Below the pieces are notes generated by a model. The model was not told the DNA's origin and did not search any database. It saw only the letters and a list, made by a program, of their open reading frames with translations. Source: Ignavibacteriales bacterium (GTDB taxonomy: Bacteria; Bacteroidota; Ignavibacteria; UBA10030). From it: DNA of 64,000 bases. Positions 2,625 to 64,000 of this stretch are shown in pieces (positions within the stretch are counted from its first letter, which is position 1; the number at the start of each line of letters is the position of its first letter). The translations under genes and the position numbers were made by a program. The stretch spans positions 12,779 to 76,778 of the forward strand of contig JAPLFP010000355.1 in assembly GCA_026390585.1 (NCBI GenBank). The letters run 5' to 3'.

Positions 2625-3866
2625 ATGTCGACTGTACGTCCGTTCAAAGCATTTCGGCCCAAGCCTGAGTACGCGGGAGAGGTCGCAGCAAAACCGTACG
2701 ATGTGTTGAACTCGGATGAAGCACGCGTGGAAGTCAAAGGACATCCACTCTCGTTTCTCCACATCGGGAAGCCGGAGATTGATCTGGATCCGGGAATTGA
2801 TCTCCACGACTCAAAGGTTTATGCGAAGGGGAAGGAGAATCTTCGGAATCTCATCGACCAGAAGGTGCTCGTTGAGGATCCCGAACCTTATCTCTATGTG
2901 TATGCTCAGACCATGGAGGGGCGGACTCAATACGGAATCGTCGGATGCGCTTCGGTGGAAGAATATTGGAACGACACGATCAAGAAACATGAGCTCACTC
3001 GGAAGGATAAGGAAGAGGACCGCTGCAACCACGTCCGCGTGACAAACTCGCACTCCGGTCCAATCTTCCTCACCTACCCGGACAATGCCGAGATAAACGC
3101 CATCGTAGCAAAAGTCGTGAGTGCGCCTCCGGAAAATGATCATGTAGCAGCTGACGGTATCCGGCACCAGTCGTGGGTCGTCAACGACAAATCGACGATC
3201 CTGAAGCTCCAGCAGCTCTTTGCAGCAACTCCTCATCTGTACGTCGCTGATGGACACCACCGCTCTGCAGCAGCCGGCATCGTGGGACGCGAAAGAAAAC
3301 TGGCGAATCCGAAGCATCGGGGAGACGAAGAGTACAACTTCTTCCTCGCTGTTTGTTTTCCCGCGAGTCAACTGAGAATTCTCGACTACAACAGAGTGGT
3401 GAAGGACTTGAACGGACTTTCCACGCGAGAATTCGTCGACAAGCTGAAGGGGAAGTTTTCTGTGCAGCCCATTCAAGGCCGCCCGAGACTTTCAAACAAA
3501 GGCGAGTTCGGTTTGTACCTCGATGGCAAGTGGCATATCATGACTGCAGCAGAATCATTGCTCAAGGATAACGATCCCGTCGAGCGTCTCGATGTCGCGA
3601 TCCTGCAGAATCACTTGCTGGATCCCATCCTGGGAATCAAGGACCCTCGGACGGACAAGAGAGTTGACTTCGTCGGTGGAATACGCGGCATGGGTGAGCT
3701 CGAGAAGCGTGTTGACTCAGGTCAGATGAAAGTGGCGTTCAGCATGTTTCCCACATCGGTTCATGAACTCATCGCCATTGCCGACGCCGGCAAGATCATG
3801 CCTCCCAAGTCCACCTGGTTCGAACCGAAGCTGCGGGATGGGCTCTTTGTGCATTTTTTGGATTAG
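2625..3866 (+). CDS. DUF1015 family protein (conserved serA/serC-associated protein)
   Basis: N-terminus MSTVRPFKAFRP...KPYDV and central ADGHHRSAAA are characteristic of DUF1015; conserved synteny with serA in FCB-group bacteria. Confidence 0.7.
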   Translation: MSTVRPFKAFRPKPEYAGEVAAKPYDVLNSDEARVEVKGHPLSFLHIGKPEIDLDPGIDLHDSKVYAKGKENLRNLIDQKVLVEDPEPYLYVYAQTMEGRTQYGIVGCASVEEYWNDTIKKHELTRKDKEEDRCNHVRVTNSHSGPIFLTYPDNAEINAIVAKVVSAPPENDHVAADGIRHQSWVVNDKSTILKLQQLFAATPHLYVADGHHRSAAAGIVGRERKLANPKHRGDEEYNFFLAVCFPASQLRILDYNRVVKDLNGLSTREFVDKLKGKFSVQPIQGRPRLSNKGEFGLYLDGKWHIMTAAESLLKDNDPVERLDVAILQNHLLDPILGIKDPRTDKRVDFVGGIRGMGELEKRVDSGQMKVAFSMFPTSVHELIAIADAGKIMPPKSTWFEPKLRDGLFVHFLD

Positions 3867-56246: not shown

Positions 56247-58250
56247 CTGAATACCCCATCGGTCGACCAACTTTGCATCAACACGATTCGGACGCTTGCC
56301 ATGGATGGTGTCCAAAAAGCAAAATCCGGCCACCCTGGATTGCCCATGGGTGCCGCCGCGATGGCCTATGTGCTTTGGACACGCCACTTGAAGCACAATC
56401 CGACGAATCCACACTGGCACAACCGTGATCGTTTCGTTCTCTCTGCAGGTCACGGCTCAATGTTGCTCTACAGCCTTCTCTATCTCACAGGCTACGAGCT
56501 CACGCTGGACGATCTGAAGAACTTCCGTCAGTTTAAGAGCAAGACACCCGGCCACCCCGAGTATCATTGGACCCCCGGCGTCGAAACGACAACGGGACCG
56601 TTGGGACAAGGGTTTGCCAACGGTGTTGGGATGGCCATCGCCGAGCGATACATGGCATCCCGGTACAATCGACCGAATTTCGAGATTGTCAAGTATCGCA
56701 TCTACGGCATTGTGAGTGATGGCGATTTGATGGAAGGGGTCTCCCACGAGGCAGCTTCACTCGCAGGACACCTCAAGCTCGGACATATCATTTATCTCTA
56801 CGACGACAATCACATCAGCATCGACGGGAACACCAAGATAGCGTTTACAGAAGATGTCGCAAAAAGGTTTGAAGCGTATGGCTGGCATGTTCAGATTGTC
56901 GACGATGGCAATGACCTCGAGGCAGTTCACAACGCTCTCAAGGCAGCGCAAGATGAGGTGAACCGTCCGTCGATCATCAAAGTGCGGACGCACATCGGTT
57001 TCGGAAGTCCAAACAAGCAGGACACGTCCGAAGCGCACGGCTCACCCCTCGGTGAAGATGAGGTGCGTTTGACCAAACGCAAGCTCGGTTGGGACCCGGA
57101 TAAGCAATTCTTCGTGCCTGCCGAGTCGTTGCAGCAATTTCGGAAGGCAGTTGAGCAAGGGAAAAAGTGGGAGGCGCTCTGGAAAACGATGTTCGATGGA
57201 TACAAACATGCACATCCAGACCTCGCCTCTGAACTGGAGCACGTGCGAGAAGGGGACTTCGGTGCAGCATGGAAAAATGCTCTCCCATCGTTTGCAGCAG
57301 AGGCTGGTTCGATGGCAACCAGAGAGGCCTCCGGAAAAGTGTTGAATGCGCTCGCTCCACACTTGCCGACGCTCATTGGCGGTTCGGCCGACCTCGCGCC
57401 ATCAAACAACACCTTCCTCAGTGGCATACCGGAATTTCAAGCTGGTGTGTATGCCGGACGCAACTTCCGTTTTGGCGTACGTGAACATGCGATGGGTTCG
57501 ATTCTCAATGGCATGGCGCTGACAGAAGGAATCATCCCATACGGCGGGACGTTCCTTGTATTCTCAGACTACATGCGCCCACCAATCCGCATGGCGGCTT
57601 TGATGGGAATACGGCCAATCTATGTTTTCACACATGACAGCATCGGATTGGGCGAGGACGGACCGACTCATCAACCGGTGGAACAGTTCGCCGCTCTGCG
57701 CGCAATACCGAATATCACCTTTATACGCCCCGCTGACGCCAACGAGACCTCGGTTGCCTGGAAGACTGCGATCGAACACAGAAGCGGCCCTGTCGCCCTT
57801 GCTCTCTCACGGCAGAAGATGCCCATCATCGATCGGACAAAGTACGCCTCCGCGGAGAACCTGGCCAAAGGCGCGTACATCCTCGGCGAGAACTCGCCGA
57901 CTCCGAAGATTATCCTGATCGGTACCGGTTCAGAGCTGCAGTATGCGCTCGGAGCCTACGAGCAGCTCGTCAAGGAACAAATTCCCGCCCGCGTTGTCAG
58001 CATGCCTTCCTGGGAGTTGTTTGAACGGCAGCCGAAGGAATACCGCGATTCCGTACTCACTCCCTCCATCAAGAAACGCGTCATCGTCGAAGCTGCATTA
58101 CCCATGGGATGGCACAAGTATGCTGGCGATGAAGGAATCGTCATCGGCATGAACTCCTTTGGAGCCTCTGCCCCCTATGAACTGCTCTATAAGGAATTCG
58201 GCTTTACTATCGAGAATGTCCTGAAGAAAGCCAAAGAACTTCTCCATTGA
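56247..58250 (+). CDS. tkt: transketolase
   Basis: [18 protein letters not shown] and TPP/pyrimidine-binding domains; conserved N-terminal helix [12 protein letters not shown] is encoded upstream of the first ATG (56301), implying a CTG start at 56247 after an AAGGAG RBS. Confidence 0.8.
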
Positions 58251-58285
58251 CTCAACTCTGATGAACAATCAACAATCGACCGACA

Positions 58286-59692
58286 ATGACGCAAACCGCA
58301 CTGGAACGCCCTGTTTTAAGCGCTGAATTCCGAAGACAGCGAGTCATCAACTGGCTGTCTCTTGGATTTCTCTACGCGTTTTTCTACATGACCAGATACA
58401 ACTACACCGCGGTGTCCCCCATCCTCGCAGACCTTCTTGGATGGAAGAATACGGAGCTGGGCGTATTCGAGACGATCATGCCTCTCGTCTACGGACTTTC
58501 CGTTGTGCTGAACGGACCATTCGCCGACCGCATCGGCGGAAAGAAGGCGTTCCTTTTTGGGGCTGTCGGCGTTGCCCTCATGAATTTCCTTTTTGGTTTG
58601 GCAAGCCTTGCGATTGTCAGTCCGGCGGTGTGGGAAGGAACGGGGATTGCACGACACGTGGTAACACCTGCAGGTCTCAGTTACGGTTTGTCGGGGGGAA
58701 TGATTCTGACGTTGATGGCAATCGTCTGGGGTTTGAACGGTTACTTTCAGTCGTTCGGCGCCCTCTCGATTGTGAAAGTCAATGCTCAATGGTTTCATGT
58801 CAGGGAACGCGGCACGTTTGCCGGAATCTTCGGAGTGCTCATCCGGATGGGTCTGCTCCTCGCCTTCCAGGGCGTACCTCTAATTCTTCTCGTTCTCCCG
58901 TGGCAATACGCCTTCTGGATTCCCGGAGCATGTGTGGTCGTGTTGTTCATCATCAACTACTTCCTCATGCACAATTCTCCGAAGGATGCAGGATTGGGCG
59001 AATTTGAAACCGGCGATGAGGTCGAAGACGACGAGAGCAAACCATCGTCGTTGAAATTTGTCATCAGGAAGGTCTTCGCTTCACGAGTAATGTGGATGAT
59101 TGCTGTCGGTTCCATGATGATTGGATTTGTCCGGCGGAGCGTTGTCGACGCCTGGTGGCCGAAGTATTTCGTCGATTTCCATGGTGCCGACAAGAGTGGG
59201 TTCGCAACCTATCTTCCATACATCGTCGCCACGTGGGGGATTGCCCTTGCTGGTATCGCAGGCGGGTTTGTCTTTGGTATCGCTTCGGATCGCACGTTTG
59301 GCGGGCGTCGTGCACCGGTCATTGTGTTTGGGTTCCTCGGTATGGCAATCGCCCTTGCATTGTTCGGCGTTTCTGATTTCCTGAACTTTGGGCCCCTCGC
59401 TGCTGCGTGCTGCCTTGTCGTTCTCTCGTTCTGCGTGAATGGTGCGCACGGAATGATTAGCGGTGCAGCGTCGATGGACTTTGGCGGAAAGCGGGCGGTG
59501 GCGACGGCAGCCGGACTCTTCGACGGCATGCAGTATCTCGCGGGAGCATTCGTCGGCATGGGTGTTGGCTACATCACAACAAACTGGGGTTGGGGAGCCT
59601 GGCACTGGGCGCCGATTCCGTTCGCCCTTGTGGGCGCATACCTGATGTCCCGGCTCTGGAACGTCATGCCACGAGGAAGGAAGGGGCACTAA
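58286..59692 (+). CDS. MFS transporter (organophosphate:Pi antiporter / OFA-like)
   Basis: 12 predicted TM helices; MFS motif MTRYNYTAVSP region. Confidence 0.75.
   Translation: MTQTALERPVLSAEFRRQRVINWLSLGFLYAFFYMTRYNYTAVSPILADLLGWKNTELGVFETIMPLVYGLSVVLNGPFADRIGGKKAFLFGAVGVALMNFLFGLASLAIVSPAVWEGTGIARHVVTPAGLSYGLSGGMILTLMAIVWGLNGYFQSFGALSIVKVNAQWFHVRERGTFAGIFGVLIRMGLLLAFQGVPLILLVLPWQYAFWIPGACVVVLFIINYFLMHNSPKDAGLGEFETGDEVEDDESKPSSLKFVIRKVFASRVMWMIAVGSMMIGFVRRSVVDAWWPKYFVDFHGADKSGFATYLPYIVATWGIALAGIAGGFVFGIASDRTFGGRRAPVIVFGFLGMAIALALFGVSDFLNFGPLAAACCLVVLSFCVNGAHGMISGAASMDFGGKRAVATAAGLFDGMQYLAGAFVGMGVGYITTNWGWGAWHWAPIPFALVGAYLMSRLWNVMPRGRKGH
59631..59692 (+). repeat. left copy of ~60-bp direct repeat (3' end of MFS gene) bracketing the RM cassette
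   Basis: gcgcatacctgatgtcccggctctggaacgtcatgccacgaggaa is identical (45/45) to 61557-61601. Confidence 0.85.
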
Positions 59693-59852
59693 CAAAGCCG
59701 GAACCGGTTGTTTGCGGTTGGCTCATGGCTGTTAGATGTCAGCATTGCCGTGTAATAATGAGAATGCCGACGTGGAGGTTGGGTCCAATTTCTTCGCTGA
59801 ACAGATTATCGGCTCGAGTTTCGCTATCTTGGGATCAACAAAATGGAGCCAT

Positions 59853-60590
59853 ATGAGTAAAATCGACAACCTAAACAAGCACTTATCTAAGGCAATCTCC
59901 CATTATTGGCGAACTCGTCAAACACAATCTCAGAAACAGGCCAAATCTGGTCGGGCTGATCAAGGTGCACGGAGCGCAGTAACCGGCGGCGCTCATATGG
60001 ACGGATTTATCGGTCTGATCAGCGAGCTGATTGTCGATGCCGGTGCCCGTGAATCCGACATTTTCTACAATCAACATCTTGAGTTACCGGGATTCTTTCG
60101 CCCTACGAAAGAATGGGACTTTCTGATGGTGAAGGACAACCAGCTCATTCTCGCGTTGGAAGCCAAATCTCAAGTGGGCCCATCGTTTGGAAACAACTTC
60201 AATAATCGAACCGAGGAGGCTATGGGCAGCGCACTTGATTTATGGACGGCTTATCGAGAGGGTGCCTATAATAAAACGGTCAAGCCCTGGCTTGGCTATG
60301 TGTTCTTGTTGGAAGACTGCCCGGAATCCCGAAAGCCTGTGAAAGTCAAGGAGCCGCATTTCAAGGTTTTCCAAGAATTTGTAGGTGCTTCATATGCGAA
60401 GCGTTATGAGCTTTTCTGTAGAAAGCTCGTCCGAGAACGTCATTATAACGTTGCAGCCTTTCTTCTCTCCGACAAGACAAATGGAGCTAGGGGACGTTAC
60501 ACGGAACCTGCTGACGATCTGAGGTTTGACATTTTCGCCAGATCACTTGTCTCCCAAGTCACAGCCTTTGGTGTTTCGAAGAACCGATGA
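59853..60590 (+). CDS. type II restriction endonuclease, XhoI/PaeR7I-like family
   Basis: ALEAKSQVGPSFGNNFNNRTEEAMGSALDLW with a PD..(E)xK-like core recalled from the RE_XhoI family; GGAG RBS; ATGA overlap with the downstream MTase. Confidence 0.55.
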   Translation: MSKIDNLNKHLSKAISHYWRTRQTQSQKQAKSGRADQGARSAVTGGAHMDGFIGLISELIVDAGARESDIFYNQHLELPGFFRPTKEWDFLMVKDNQLILALEAKSQVGPSFGNNFNNRTEEAMGSALDLWTAYREGAYNKTVKPWLGYVFLLEDCPESRKPVKVKEPHFKVFQEFVGASYAKRYELFCRKLVRERHYNVAAFLLSDKTNGARGRYTEPADDLRFDIFARSLVSQVTAFGVSKNR

Positions 60591-61531
60591 CACCAAAAGA
60601 AAATATCGCGCGCGACATAACAACACATCGTCTCGTCCAAGGGGATGCCAGACAAGTTCCATTTCTAAAAGACCAATCTGTTCATCTTGTCATAACGTCG
60701 CCACCCTATTGGACGCTCAAGAAATACAACGAGAACCCGAGTCAACTTGGGCACATCGCGGACTATGAAGGATTTCTTGAGGAATTGTCCAAAGTGTGGC
60801 AAGAAATGTACCGCATCTTGGTGCCAGGTGGCCGTCTCGTATGCGTAGTCGGCGATGTTTGTCTCTCACGCAAGGCATATGGCCGACACGTCGTGGTTCC
60901 ATTACATTCCGACATTGCAGTCATATGTCGCAAGATTGGTTTTGACAACCTCAATCCCATTATTTGGCACAAGATTGCCAATGCCAATTATGAAATCAGC
61001 AATGGCTCAAAGTTCTTTGGTAAGCCTTACGAGCCGAATGCTATCATCAAAAACGACATCGAATTCATATTGATGGAACGGAAATCGGGGGGCTACCGTC
61101 AGCCGACCGAGCGACAACGCAAGCTCAGTATGATTTCCAAGGAAGAGTACAGCAAGTGGTTCCAGCAATTTTGGAATTTAACTGGTGCGTCTACTAAGAA
61201 ACATCCTGCTCCATTTCCAGTGGAGCTTGCGTACAGACTTGTCAGAATGTTCTCATTTGTTGGCGATACGGTAGTTGATCCTTTTTGCGGGTCGGGTACG
61301 ACGATGGTTGCGGCGATTAAAGCAGGACGAAATAGTATCGGAATTGAAATTGATCCCGAGTATTGCAAAATGGCTGAGGAGCGTCTTCGGCAAGAGAACT
61401 CGGATATTTTTTCGTCAGCCACTCTCGAGTTCATCTACCCCGCCCAAGAAATTGAGTCCAAAGTGGCGGTGGGTGATAAGCGAGCGAAATATTCAACTCG
61501 CAAGAAGAAACCCTCCAAGCAACGACCTTAG
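60587..61531 (+). CDS. DNA amino-methyltransferase (beta-class, motif IV SPPY preceding motif I FCGSGTT), cognate methylase of the RM cassette
   Basis: VITSPPYW ... DPFCGSGTTMVAA motif order. Confidence 0.8.
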   Translation: MTPKENIARDITTHRLVQGDARQVPFLKDQSVHLVITSPPYWTLKKYNENPSQLGHIADYEGFLEELSKVWQEMYRILVPGGRLVCVVGDVCLSRKAYGRHVVVPLHSDIAVICRKIGFDNLNPIIWHKIANANYEISNGSKFFGKPYEPNAIIKNDIEFILMERKSGGYRQPTERQRKLSMISKEEYSKWFQQFWNLTGASTKKHPAPFPVELAYRLVRMFSFVGDTVVDPFCGSGTTMVAAIKAGRNSIGIEIDPEYCKMAEERLRQENSDIFSSATLEFIYPAQEIESKVAVGDKRAKYSTRKKKPSKQRP

Positions 61532-61553
61532 TCATTGTTCTCGTATTACCTGT

Positions 61554-61614
61554 CGGCGCATACCTGATGTCCCGGCTCTGGAACGTCATGCCACGAGGAA
61601 AGGGAAGACACTAG
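61554..61614 (+). repeat. right copy of direct repeat bracketing the RM cassette
   Basis: see 59631-59692. Confidence 0.85.
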
Positions 61615-61653
61615 CCGATTCAAGGCTGGCCGTCTGCTCTGTGTTGTGAAAAA

Positions 61654-61690
61654 CAAGAAAGCGAGATCAGACGATCTCGCTTTCTTTTGT
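61654..61690. terminator. bidirectional rho-independent terminator (aagaaagcgagatc agac gatctcgctttctt)
   Basis: perfect 14-bp stem flanked by A-run and T-run on opposite sides. Confidence 0.7.
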
Positions 61691-61786
61691 ACAGCCCAAC
61701 TGTCCGACGGGATGACATCCCGTCGAGACTTGTCGGAGAGACGGCGTCCACTTGTCTGACGGGACTGCGTCCCGTCGCACGGAGCA

Positions 61787-62497
61787 CTATTTTTTCATCC
61801 CCCAGAGTTTCTTTGTCGCTCTCTCTAATTCCTGTCCGATCAGCTTCGGGTCAAGCGTCTTCTCCGGTTCATTCTCAAAGACGGCGTAGGGGATCTTGAA
61901 TCCTTTTACCTCGATGAAGTTCGGATCTTTCGCTTCCAGCTTCTCCCAATCATTCGTTTTGTAATAGAAGTCCATCTTCTCATCGGGCAACGAATGGTAC
62001 AGGATGGAATCTTCCTGACCTTTTCGGGCTCTGCGATGGTTCTTGCGAACGGATTCTTCGTAAGAAACCCGGATGTACATCAGCGTGACTCGACGGAGAA
62101 TGTCCTCGTGAAGACAGCTAAGCGCTTCATGGATTCCGTCGTCGCCACCGCGGGCAAACTCGATGAGTATCGTTTTCCCGTCGTGGTAGTTCGGATCACG
62201 GGCGAGCTTCTTTCGGTACTCCAGATTGATACGCTCGATGTAGAGGTTCCAGATGAAGTGCTCTTTGAACCAGTACTTCTCGTCCGTCCAGATCCGTGGT
62301 TTCGCGTGTTTGGTCAGCATGTCGTCAATTTCGAAGGTCTCCCAGACGTACACAAAGTCGTCCAGTTCTTCGAAGTCGGCGATATGAAAACGCTCCAACC
62401 GTTCTTTGGCGTCGGCTTTCTTCAGGAAGTCAATGACCTCGGACTTGCCTGCAGCAGGCCGACCGGTAATAATGAGTATCGGGAAGTTGTTGTTCAT
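61787..62497 (-). CDS. P-loop NTPase / kinase-like protein of unknown function
   Basis: Walker A ITGRPAAGKSE; weak resemblance to AAA_33/PFK2-type kinases. Confidence 0.45.
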   Translation of the reverse strand: MNNNFPILIITGRPAAGKSEVIDFLKKADAKERLERFHIADFEELDDFVYVWETFEIDDMLTKHAKPRIWTDEKYWFKEHFIWNLYIERINLEYRKKLARDPNYHDGKTILIEFARGGDDGIHEALSCLHEDILRRVTLMYIRVSYEESVRKNHRRARKGQEDSILYHSLPDEKMDFYYKTNDWEKLEAKDPNFIEVKGFKIPYAVFENEPEKTLDPKLIGQELERATKKLWGMKK

Positions 62498-62513
62498 AGT
62501 GCTCCCTAGTCAA

Positions 62514-64000
62514 TTACTTGAGTTCTTTGATCCCACCCTTCAGACTCCCCGGCACGTTTTTCATAGTACGAATCATTTTCTCGGTGGCCTTGAACACCGT
62601 TTCGTCGAGATATGTCAGCTGAGGCGTGTCAATCCCGAGGTACCGTTTCGCTTCACCCATCATATAGTCGCTGGCAGCCCCGGTGTACACGGACTCATCC
62701 TCGACAGGTTTGCCATTGACCAGAAGTTTCACAATCTCAATGTGCACGAGGCCTCGGCGTTGCCACTCACACTCCACGCCTGACATCTGAAAACCAGACC
62801 TATCGATGATGTTCTTAAGGACAATATCATGCACTTGCTTGCCGGTGAGTTTGAATGAGACCAGGATGTTCCGGAACGGCAGCACTTCAAAAAGGTCTTG
62901 CTTCGTGATCGGCCCCGGCGAGAATCTCTTGCGAATGCCGCCATTGTTCATGAAACCAAGATCCGCGCCTGCCCCTTCGCGTTGCGCCTCACAGAGGAAG
63001 TTGCCGAGACGACGGTCCGAGCCTTCCGCATTCGCCTCAACGCTCCACGTGCCGATTACCTCGCTATACTCCTTCGCGATATCGGTCTTGAAAGAATCCA
63101 CCAGCGCTGTCACCACTGTCTTCCGGTCCGGATGATACCACAGTTGATGGAGCTCCCCGCTCCATCTTGTGACGGCATGATCCTCCACCGTAAGATCGAG
63201 CACACCGAGGTTTTCGCAGTTTGCTCCCGACTGCGCAATGATCACACCGTTGATGTATTTCGGCGTCTTCAGTCGCGTGTGCGAGTGCCCCCCGATGATC
63301 ACATCGAGCCCCTTCACATTGATCGCAATCAGCGAATCCTCATCCACCCCCACATGCGTCACAGCGACCACAAGATCGACCTGAGGACGGAGCATCTCGA
63401 TCAACCGTCTGGCGATTTTGATCGCGGGCATCAGCTTTACCCCCTTGGAGCTGTTCTGATTGACCAAACCGTAGTACTCGCTCGATATGACTCCAAAGAT
63501 CCCTACTTTGATTCCGTTTTTCTCGATGATCGCATATTCCCTGTTGGTGATCGGCTTCCCGCTTTTTTCATCCATCAGATTGGCCTCCACGACGGGGAAT
63601 TTTGCCATCGCGACCAGCTTCAGGAGGTTCGCATACGAAATATCAAAGTCGTGGTTCCCTGGCGTCCACCCTTCATAGCCGATCAGATTCATCATCTCGA
63701 CGAGAGCCCCGCCGTCCACTCCTTTATAGAGACGATCGGAGATCGGGTTACCGGTCATCAAGTCGCCGGCATCAAGCACCAGCGAGGTCGTTCTGATCTT
63801 CCGGATGCTGTCAACCGTGAACGCAAGCTCGTTGAATCCGCCGACGAACGGTTTGGACGTCGACCTCAACCAATATGCCTCATGCGGGAGAAAGCTTGCG
63901 TGCATATCGTTTGTGTGGAGTATCGTGATCTGTTTCGGCTGCGAGAGAATGGGCAGCACAAAAAGCATGAGCCCGGCACCAAGGAGCGCCAGACATCTGG
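62514..64000 (-). CDS. bifunctional metallophosphatase / 5'-nucleotidase (UshA-like), 5' end beyond window
   Basis: N-terminal calcineurin-like motifs (HTNDMH, GNHDFD) and a C-terminal 5'-nucleotidase domain; the signal peptide runs off the window end. Confidence 0.8.
   Translation of the reverse strand, partial: RCLALLGAGLMLFVLPILSQPKQITILHTNDMHASFLPHEAYWLRSTSKPFVGGFNELAFTVDSIRKIRTTSLVLDAGDLMTGNPISDRLYKGVDGGALVEMMNLIGYEGWTPGNHDFDISYANLLKLVAMAKFPVVEANLMDEKSGKPITNREYAIIEKNGIKVGIFGVISSEYYGLVNQNSSKGVKLMPAIKIARRLIEMLRPQVDLVVAVTHVGVDEDSLIAINVKGLDVIIGGHSHTRLKTPKYINGVIIAQSGANCENLGVLDLTVEDHAVTRWSGELHQLWYHPDRKTVVTALVDSFKTDIAKEYSEVIGTWSVEANAEGSDRRLGNFLCEAQREGAGADLGFMNNGGIRKRFSPGPITKQDLFEVLPFRNILVSFKLTGKQVHDIVLKNIIDRSGFQMSGVECEWQRRGLVHIEIVKLLVNGKPVEDESVYTGAASDYMMGEAKRYLGIDTPQLTYLDETVFKATEKMIRTMKNVPGSLKGGIKELK

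Follow-up and report, generated by a model that had tools for sequence, protein, structure and literature searches.

Genes and features of the locus

The 64-kb stretch of DNA analysed here (the window), which belongs to an Ignavibacteriota-like metagenome-assembled genome (MAG), contains a two-gene type II restriction-modification (RM) unit located behind a gene coding for a transporter of the major facilitator superfamily (MFS), and bracketed by two copies of the end of that gene. The MFS gene (58286-59692, plus strand; Pfam MFS_1, E 7e-33) is intact: it codes for 468 amino acids, ends with TAA and has the length of its orthologues in L001, L012 and others (L numbers designate the loci used for comparison). 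A repeat search retrieved a single strong repeat within 58000-63500, a direct pair with a spacing of 1922, identical at 56 positions out of 63 (89%). Copy 1 (59629-59691, plus strand) makes up the last 63 nt of the MFS gene; copy 2 (61551-61613, plus strand) is an orphan, promoterless MFS 3' fragment, which has kept the MFS frame and ends with TAG (61612-61614) while having no start codon. The two copies share a perfect core of 46 nt (59633-59678 and 61555-61600), which occurs only twice in the window even when three mismatches are allowed, with no occurrence expected (100 shuffles). The twofold presence of the MFS gene end had been noticed in the original prediction, made from the sequence before the present analysis, with coordinates and a '45-nt core' that were off by 1-3 nt.

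Between the copies, an insert of 1859 nt, hence less than 20 kb, holds exactly two long open reading frames (ORFs) in the ORF list, with a GC content of approximately 47% as compared to 52-60% in the flanks. The first gene (59853-60590, plus strand) codes for a restriction endonuclease (REase) of 245 amino acids, which matches the Pfam XhoI family PF04555 over the full length of the profile (E 1e-91) and is labelled REase_II by PADLOC (E 2e-89). More than 8000 homologues were retrieved, most of them also of 245 residues; there is no family for it in NCBIfam and no solved relative by sequence search of the PDB. The second gene (60587-61531, plus strand) codes for a beta-class amino-methyltransferase (MTase) of 314 amino acids, matched by Pfam N6_N4_Mtase PF01555 (E 1e-45) and by MTase_II in PADLOC, with TTHA0409 (PDB 2zie, E 9e-112) as its closest solved relative. 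Its SPPY motif IV (residues 38-41) comes before the FCGSG motif that binds S-adenosylmethionine (SAM), near residue 225, an order typical of the beta class, and the REase is adjacent to an amino-methyltransferase that has both a motif IV of the (S/D)PPY form and a SAM-binding motif. The REase stop and the MTase start are joined in an ATGA overlap, so that the MTase appears to be translationally coupled to the REase in an operon that is functional-looking. The original prediction of two coupled genes, an XhoI/PaeR7I-like REase and a beta-class SPPY MTase, is thus borne out both for the layout and for the identity of the proteins.

As in the XhoI/PaeR7I systems (PF04555, CTCGAG), the REase of the window matches the whole profile and has the typical length, and its recognition sequence is probably CTCGAG. 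In contrast to these systems the R gene comes first and overlaps the M gene by ATGA, and the MTase is a small beta-class SPPY enzyme, akin to TTHA0409 of T. thermophilus; in PaeR7I, M precedes R and the methylase is larger. The SPPY form is that of N4-cytosine enzymes, DPPY being that of CcrM (PMC10406627), and the product of the MTase would accordingly be N4-methylated cytosine.

The rest of the interval may be read from left to right. Behind the core of copy 1, an MFS tail that we name A (ending with RKGH and the stop codon) and a 59-nt spacer extend over 59679-59751 (plus strand), collinear with L012 and with L134. The RM leader follows (59752-59852, plus strand), with a CTCGAG hexamer at 59813-59818, a TTTCGCTATCTTG box at 59819-59831 and a GGAG ribosome binding site; the box is conserved and is likely to be a promoter element. 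After the MTase gene, 61532-61550 (plus strand) comprises a remnant of the 3' untranslated tail of the RM unit and the right junction. Behind the core of copy 2 come a second type of MFS tail, B (KGRH, stop), and its spacer (61601-61654, plus strand), which are the haplotype of the empty sites of L002 and L001. A hairpin with a 14-bp stem (61655-61686), common to L001, L002 and L134, closes the interval as a terminator, at the place behind copy 2 where one had been predicted. It is preceded by a run of A and followed by a T-rich stretch, its terminator score being found on the minus strand, and it now serves both the RM operon and a convergent gene coding for a protein of 236 amino acids.

Empty sites and mobility markers

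When species-representative genomes were scanned with the MFS protein, 80 loci were obtained, all of them in MAGs labelled Ignavibacteriota, Bacteroidota and similar. Its closest relatives are found in L001 (PMZI01000074, 95% amino-acid identity) and L002 (JBGPAN010000270, 98%), with the same succession of a transketolase gene, the MFS gene, about 115 nt that include the same terminator hairpin, the 236-aa gene and a 5'-nucleotidase gene. RM genes are lacking at both loci, and the repeated sequence occurs there just once. It is near certain that the RM unit was inserted at the 3' end of the MFS gene, with repeats on its flanks and empty sites in relatives. These sites, where the MFS stop is directly followed by the terminator, are those anticipated by the original prediction, and neither of the two observations that would have spoken against it was made: no duplication devoid of RM genes exists in L001 or L002, and the REase does match a restriction family.

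Criteria for 'insertion with long target duplication', a mode described in Helicobacter pylori in 2000, were proposed by Furuta, Abe and Kobayashi in 2010 (NAR 38:2428, PMC2853133), and the locus displays all four explicit ones: an R and an M gene, a length below 20 kb without mobile-element genes or terminal inverted repeats (TIRs), a repeat longer than 30 bp, and a relative where the sequence is contiguous. Like the members of this class, it has R and M alone in a 1.86-kb insert, with a GC content unlike that of the host, and a direct repeat of the target of more than 30 bp, with one copy at the empty site and with neither transposase, integrase nor tRNA. In the published cases, both copies are highly identical to the target over the full repeat; in the window only the 46-nt core is identical, the copies continue into two different haplotypes, and the insertion exists in two lineages approximately 13% apart. 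Compared with L002 over 63 nt, copy 1 is 84% identical and copy 2 is closer, at approximately 90% (by inspection of the alignments). The host of the window is outside the taxa listed in PMC2853133.

Markers of other modes of mobility were looked for. There is no tRNA gene in the 64-kb window (tRNA scan), no Rfam family between its positions 50 and 64 kb, no integrase between 45 and 64 kb, and no transposase or recombinase among the neighbouring genes, which are housekeeping genes. The locus has none of the attributes of a transposon or insertion sequence (transposase, TIRs, short target duplication of fixed length), nor those of an integrase island (a tRNA or tmRNA target together with a tyrosine or serine recombinase). 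The denial of a transposon in the original prediction, which had relied on the lack of transposase and TIRs, consequently holds, and it extends to tRNA and integrase. The only inverted pair near the ends (59779-59794 and 61446-61461; 16 nt, 81%) was taken as a TIR candidate and rejected, its right arm being located within the MTase gene, unconserved in homologues, and similar chance pairs being abundant.

The spacer that separates the MFS gene from the 236-aa gene is apparently a site of variation: in several distant relatives (L012, 7408-8713; L003 and L018, 7405-11400) it holds 1.3-4 kb of other DNA. In L012 this DNA comprises an ORF that runs off the end of the contig and contains an MGWNSW motif, which we take to resemble that of GH27 alpha-galactosidases.

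A diverged occupied site

Among the proteins of the database, the REase nearest to that of the window (P0001, 91%) is coded by an independent contig of 2.6 kb, L134, which aligns to the window at 59272-61576, with 86.5% identity, and again at 61624-61723. Its left junction is the same as that of the window, with the MFS 3' end followed by the same host sequence up to ...AGATGTCAGCATT, and the right junction common to both lies 12-19 nt past the MTase stop, before the same terminator with the same loop. Its copy 2 is degenerate: 24 positions out of 31 are identical to its own copy 1, and a 45-nt deletion follows. This contig is of immediate importance for the idea that the window might be an assembly artefact, where two strain variants or a small circular element had been joined via the 46-nt identical stretch. 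The window contig is derived from a metagenome and the identical core is short, which would be in line with such an error, but L134, an independent assembly from another sample, has the same order of MFS gene, A flank, RM genes, MFS fragment, B spacer and terminator, and 46 nt is less than the usual final k-mers and reads; an artefact is scarcely credible.

The MFS genes of the window, L134, L001 and L002 are approximately 87-88% identical to one another, in a star-like phylogeny. Between the window and L134 the synonymous divergence (dS) is 0.62 for the REase, 0.28 for the MTase and 0.63 for the 3' part of the MFS gene, and the ratio of nonsynonymous to synonymous divergence (dN/dS) is 0.07 for the REase and 0.09 for the MTase, values that indicate an RM unit long kept by purifying selection. 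Because L134 has both junctions and yet is approximately 13% diverged, with a copy 2 that has decayed, the insertion must be old, and it would predate the split of the lineage of the window from that of L134. Now, the chance of finding 46 identical positions out of 46 in the core is P ~6e-6 at the decay rate of L134, and ~0.002 at the lowest dS. In view of the age of the insertion, and of the fact that copy 2 is noncoding, this identity requires gene conversion or a later re-creation by recombination, and the perfect core of the window is better read as a trace of gene conversion than as a sign of recency.

The identity between 59853-61531 in the window and 535-2213 in L134 forms a mosaic, with the MTase at 94-98% and the REase at approximately 82-90%, its 5' part being at approximately 82%. 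The 5' part of the L134 REase is nearer the L083 allele, borne by a cassette (see below), than the window's. This pattern suggests allele exchange within the RM unit, and such mosaic identity implies that homologous exchange is frequent at the locus. In L134 (455-470, compared to 59749-59785 in the window) some 33-37 nt of the RM leader are gone, including a GTAATAA heptamer, while CTCGAG and the promoter-like box have been kept.

Two gene ends of different ancestry

The sequences that follow the core in the two copies were compared over 62 nt, with similarity expressed as z scores. The flank of copy 1 (A) has a z score of 11.8 with L012 and of 8.5 with the copy-1 flank of L134; that of copy 2 (B) has a z score of 18.4 with L002 and of 4.0 with L001. 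Between A and B the score is 0.4, with no detectable similarity in the 62 nt compared. The A spacer (59693-59751, 59 nt past the MFS stop) is collinear with that of L012 from the stop codon onwards, with 28 identities out of 38 and a score that none of 300 shuffles reached. The C-terminus of the MFS protein reads RGRKGH in A, as it does in L012, RGKGRH in B and RGKGGH in L002, and both the A and the B forms are plausible. The body of the MFS gene of the window is L002-like (approximately 92%) right up to the core. L012 is an outgroup free of RM genes with an MFS gene only approximately 76% identical, and even there the A flank can still be recognized; B is therefore not a diverged in-situ duplicate of A. 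The derivation of A and B from a longer duplication (~120 nt) that would have diverged in situ was ruled out by this test of flank similarity. The occupied locus is thus chimeric, with the RM unit as the link between two MFS 3' haplotypes.

It remains to be understood how such a chimera came about. The classical answer would be a one-step insertion with long target duplication, in which some 60-120 nt of a single target were duplicated by an unknown break-and-repair process, a later exchange with a relative devoid of RM genes having replaced either the right side of copy 2 or the tail of copy 1. All the formal features put forward in PMC2853133 are present, plain-looking long repeats surround members of the same RM family in L139/140/141, where mismatches are evenly spread, and in L102, and the mosaic identity of the window and L134 points to the frequent homologous exchange that this scenario needs. 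Yet it calls for an extra event, with a boundary that falls exactly at the end of the core; divergence in situ is insufficient to account for a z score of 0.4 between A and B when A is recognizable in an outgroup at 76% MFS identity; and A on the left with B on the right is already the arrangement of both RM-bearing lineages. We consider this scenario rather unlikely. The diagnosis of insertion with long target duplication made in the original prediction stands as far as the formal features of the class are concerned, and is not supported as the description of a fresh, simple duplication of one target, with flanks that have no detectable similarity and an insertion as old as L134 indicates.

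The repeats just alluded to come from a survey of 30 loci with a complete RM unit and both flanks, several of which have long direct repeats that are not attC. In L139/140/141 (Ignavibacteria bacterium RBG_16_35_7; L139 is MHAG01000324), repeats of approximately 165-185 nt, 88-90% identical, located at 3624-3822 and 5552-5760 in L139, flank a unit with a REase 84% identical to that of the window. The repeated sequence is the 3' end of a convergent OPT transporter gene together with its terminator hairpin, the real gene end being the downstream copy, and L139 would seem to be a further case of long target duplication, independent of the first and located elsewhere in the genome. L102 has repeats of approximately 300 nt (221-521 and 2383-2683; 80-89% identical), inside a pyrimidine-rich low-complexity region of the CCTTNATCCTT type, around a unit with a REase 66% identical to that of the window, and L133 has a flanking repeat of 19 nt. 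These repeats are in keeping with PMC2853133, where RM genes were reported to have flanking repeats in excess.

The opposite polarity has also to be considered, with L001 and L002 as excision scars: the RM-bearing chimera would be ancestral to all four close genomes, and recombination of copy 1 with copy 2 would have removed the RM unit, leaving the B tail as heritage. The tail and spacer of L001 and L002 are indeed of the B type, as behind copy 2, and not of the A type of copy 1 and L012, and the four genomes are equidistant. This view is nevertheless quite improbable, as it needs two losses of an addictive RM system, and leaves the original source of B unexplained; furthermore, the terminator loop and the B spacer group the window with L134, against L001 and L002.

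A probable origin in integron-type cassettes

Nucleotide homology of the RM unit to units located elsewhere is limited to the region from 59759 to ~61531-61540, and what lies at these limits in other contigs is informative. In many of them GTTATGT, GTTAGGC or GTTAGAC is present approximately 100 nt before the REase ATG, and ...CACTTCACATAAC... is found 25-33 nt past the MTase stop, the distance at which attC starts; contigs with both the core motif and attC are L081-L085, L087, L090, L091, L103, L104, L135-L138 and L142. In L083 (1-5955) these elements recur between short sets of ORFs, with hairpins that pair ACATAAC with GTTATGT (fold z scores from -3.7 to -6.0), and in L127 (1-16211) the RM unit stands among HicA, helix-turn-helix (HTH) and Eco29kI-RM cassettes separated by repeated elements. 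Attention may also be drawn to L090, L142 and L135-L138, which are among the homologues in cassette arrays with attC-like hairpins of the ACATAAC ... GTTATGT form. Calls of attC rest on repeat families, core motifs and fold z scores, and were made with no covariance model; a heuristic combining a regular expression with folding was discarded, as it gave dozens of matches in coding sequence, including in the window. By these signs the arrays that bear the homologues can be regarded as integron-type cassette arrays, with no integrase seen in the flanks available.

The window itself has no attC with the RYYYAAC ... GTTRRRY form at the 3' end of the unit, which L083 and others do have, and no cassette array beside an integrase, its neighbours being housekeeping genes. 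Its DNA folds no better than shuffled sequences (z -1.4 for 59680-59760, -0.5 for 59626-59760 and 0.07 for 61532-61660). A candidate attC remnant, made of GTTAGAT at 59731-59737 and CACTAAC at the MFS stop, was rejected, with its z score of -1.4 and its location in a stretch homologous to the L012 spacer. A degenerate GTAATAA (59752-59758) is present where the cassette-borne homologues have the attC core GTTATGT, and past the MTase stop those homologues enter attC where the window and L134 enter MFS-derived sequence. Because the unit of the window nests among cassette-borne alleles, it most likely descends from an integron-type cassette that has lost its attC.

Integron gene cassettes that carry defence systems have been described (bioRxiv 10.1101/2024.07.02.601686). 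The present family resembles them in that homologues (80-93% amino-acid identity) belong to arrays of short cassettes separated by attC-like hairpins, with toxin-antitoxin pairs and a further RM system as neighbours (L083, L127). It is unlike them at the window, which has a conserved housekeeping neighbourhood and no attC, array or nearby integrase. The original prediction, which had spoken of a cassette, was accurate in its description and had missed this integron-type context in many other contigs.

It would then be natural to ask whether an integron integrase inserted the cassette at a secondary chromosomal site. The closest homologues are cassettes bearing attC, and the left limit of homology (59752-59759) falls within approximately 13 nt of the cassette boundary, a coincidence that is partly forced, since in an array the upstream sequence is made of other cassettes. 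An insertion of this kind would leave attC at the right end and no long duplication, while the window has no attC, and no integrase within 45-64 kb. For the present structure this route is largely refuted and very improbable; it might account for the initial arrival of the unit in a donor, provided that a relative with an A-type MFS gene, the RM unit and attC exists.

One-sided recombination as a possible mechanism

The reading that we favour, tentatively, is an origin of the locus by one-sided homologous recombination, with displacement of a gene 3' end, a process known as homology-facilitated illegitimate recombination (HFIR), documented with the orphaned 3' ends it leaves behind in PMC3240628 and PMC5361080. 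DNA from a related genome would already have had the RM unit some 60 nt behind its own MFS gene, with the A tail and spacer. The left end of this incoming DNA would have paired and recombined with the resident MFS gene, while its right end, 12-20 nt beyond the MTase stop, would have been joined illegitimately to the resident MFS gene, ~63-75 nt before its stop. The donor tail would thus have completed the MFS reading frame, and the resident end, that is, the B tail, spacer and terminator, would have been displaced downstream as an orphan fragment, copy 2. After the split from L134, copy 2 would have decayed in that lineage, and the 46-nt stretch would have been homogenised by gene conversion in the window. 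The transfer would have gone from a related donor to the lineage of the window. We prefer HFIR to a duplication made at insertion because the layout, with homology, donor tail, cargo, illegitimate joint and resident end in this order, is that of an HFIR product: behind the shared core one finds the A tail and spacer in copy 1, and the B tail, spacer and terminator in copy 2.

Displacement along the same lines has been invoked to explain the orphan 3' ends of Rhs, contact-dependent inhibition (CDI) and type VI secretion system (T6SS) loci (Kirchberger et al. 2017, PMC5361080). There too, a module equipped with its own 3' end of a conserved gene recombines on that side only, and the resident 3' end persists downstream. 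The window differs in its cargo, an RM operon past the stop codon and not a toxin domain with its immunity gene, in the single displacement that is seen, and in that its mechanism is inferred.

Several points weigh against HFIR. A donor-type locus, with an A-type MFS gene followed by the RM unit and no duplication, was not found among the loci obtained, which leaves the first step hypothetical; L012, alone among the RM-free genomes in having an A flank, is at ~76% identity in the MFS gene too diverged to be the donor itself; and to the left of the core the MFS gene displays no donor-like tract. At the right joint, the consensus of the cassette 3' tail, ...CTCTCCGTGCCGCC, and the MFS sequence, ...TTCCGTTCGCCCTTGTGGGCGC, share TCCGT and GTG..CGC, but the sequence of the joint has drifted in the window as well as in L134, and this candidate microhomology can no longer be read with confidence. 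In addition, a plain duplication with one-sided allele replacement could also yield the A/B pattern, and the star-like phylogeny of the four close genomes may allow for the possibility that L001 and L002 lost the RM unit when the repeats recombined.

Another way to join two haplotypes through a shared core is a re-integration of the Campbell type, where the RM unit with one repeat, excised as a circle in another RM-bearing relative, entered an empty B-type site by a single crossover in the 46-nt core. This predicts the exact layout observed: copy 1 made of the resident left part and the A tail of the circle, copy 2 of the diverged left edge of the circle (61538-61550) and the resident B tail, with a perfect core. 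It would also fit the hypothetical step of 'release and re-infection' in the RM life cycle proposed in PMC2853133. We deem it improbable: L134, with the same junctions and a decayed copy 2, tells that the structure pre-existed, a single crossover in 46 bp is inefficient, an identical core demands identical sequences in donor and recipient, and a circular or tandem form was not observed. The data at hand do not separate such re-integration from gene conversion.

Should HFIR nevertheless be the proper account, an RM unit placed beside a conserved gene would spread to relatives with that gene as its sole anchor, displacing the resident end, and the repeats that ensue would permit gene conversion, excision and re-entry. 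Integron cassettes would escape into ordinary chromosomal sites by this route. One might go further, and surmise that the 'long target duplications' of RM systems are in general footprints of one-sided homologous recombination, not made at insertion, a generalization that we regard as doubtful. RM systems act as selfish mobile units, and the insertion of 'naked' R-M pairs with long variable duplications has never been explained; with HFIR, this mode of RM mobility, known since 2000, would acquire a concrete mechanism that can be put to the test. The locus is an RM insertion whose descriptive class is already known, found in a new lineage, and it adds a case from an uncultured phylum. What it adds concerns mechanism: the copies are chimeric, the insertion is old and shared with L134, one lineage has probably undergone gene conversion where the other shows decay, and the unit most likely stems from a cassette. 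All this comes from the comparators, namely two empty sites, one diverged occupied site, an outgroup haplotype and the cassette-borne homologues. These show that flanking repeats need not derive from one target, that they can be kept identical by gene conversion or decay away, and that the unit switches between integron arrays and ordinary sites of the chromosome.

CTCGAG sites and the downstream neighbourhood

As had been pointed out in the original prediction, CTCGAG is present upstream of the REase start (59813-59818, approximately position -40); a second site, 61424-61429, is within the MTase gene. Methylation-sensitive promoters occur in other RM systems, for example that of CfrBI, the subject of a preprint, and an autoregulatory role of the -40 site is possible. 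Conservation, however, brings no support to the self-recognition or autoregulation that had been suggested: the hexamer is found in 7 out of 40 homologous loci, the seven closest, and it is altered in close homologues, to CTCACG in L103 and L086, ATCGAG in L130 and CTCTAG in L133, whereas the adjacent TTTCGCTATCTTG box is conserved much further. There is no avoidance of CTCGAG in the window, which holds 22 sites where 26.8 +/- 5.3 would be expected.

In the interval from the terminator to the end of the 236-aa gene, the window has two similar GACGGGA...TCCCGTC hairpins (61706-61726 and 61757-61777), where L001, L002 and L134 have a single one; the pair resembles a small local duplication. The 236-aa protein (61787-62497, minus strand) has no match in Pfam, NCBIfam or PADLOC. 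It carries a Walker-A-like GRPAAGKS motif in its N-terminal part, and more than 50 related loci keep its gene beside that of the MFS transporter.

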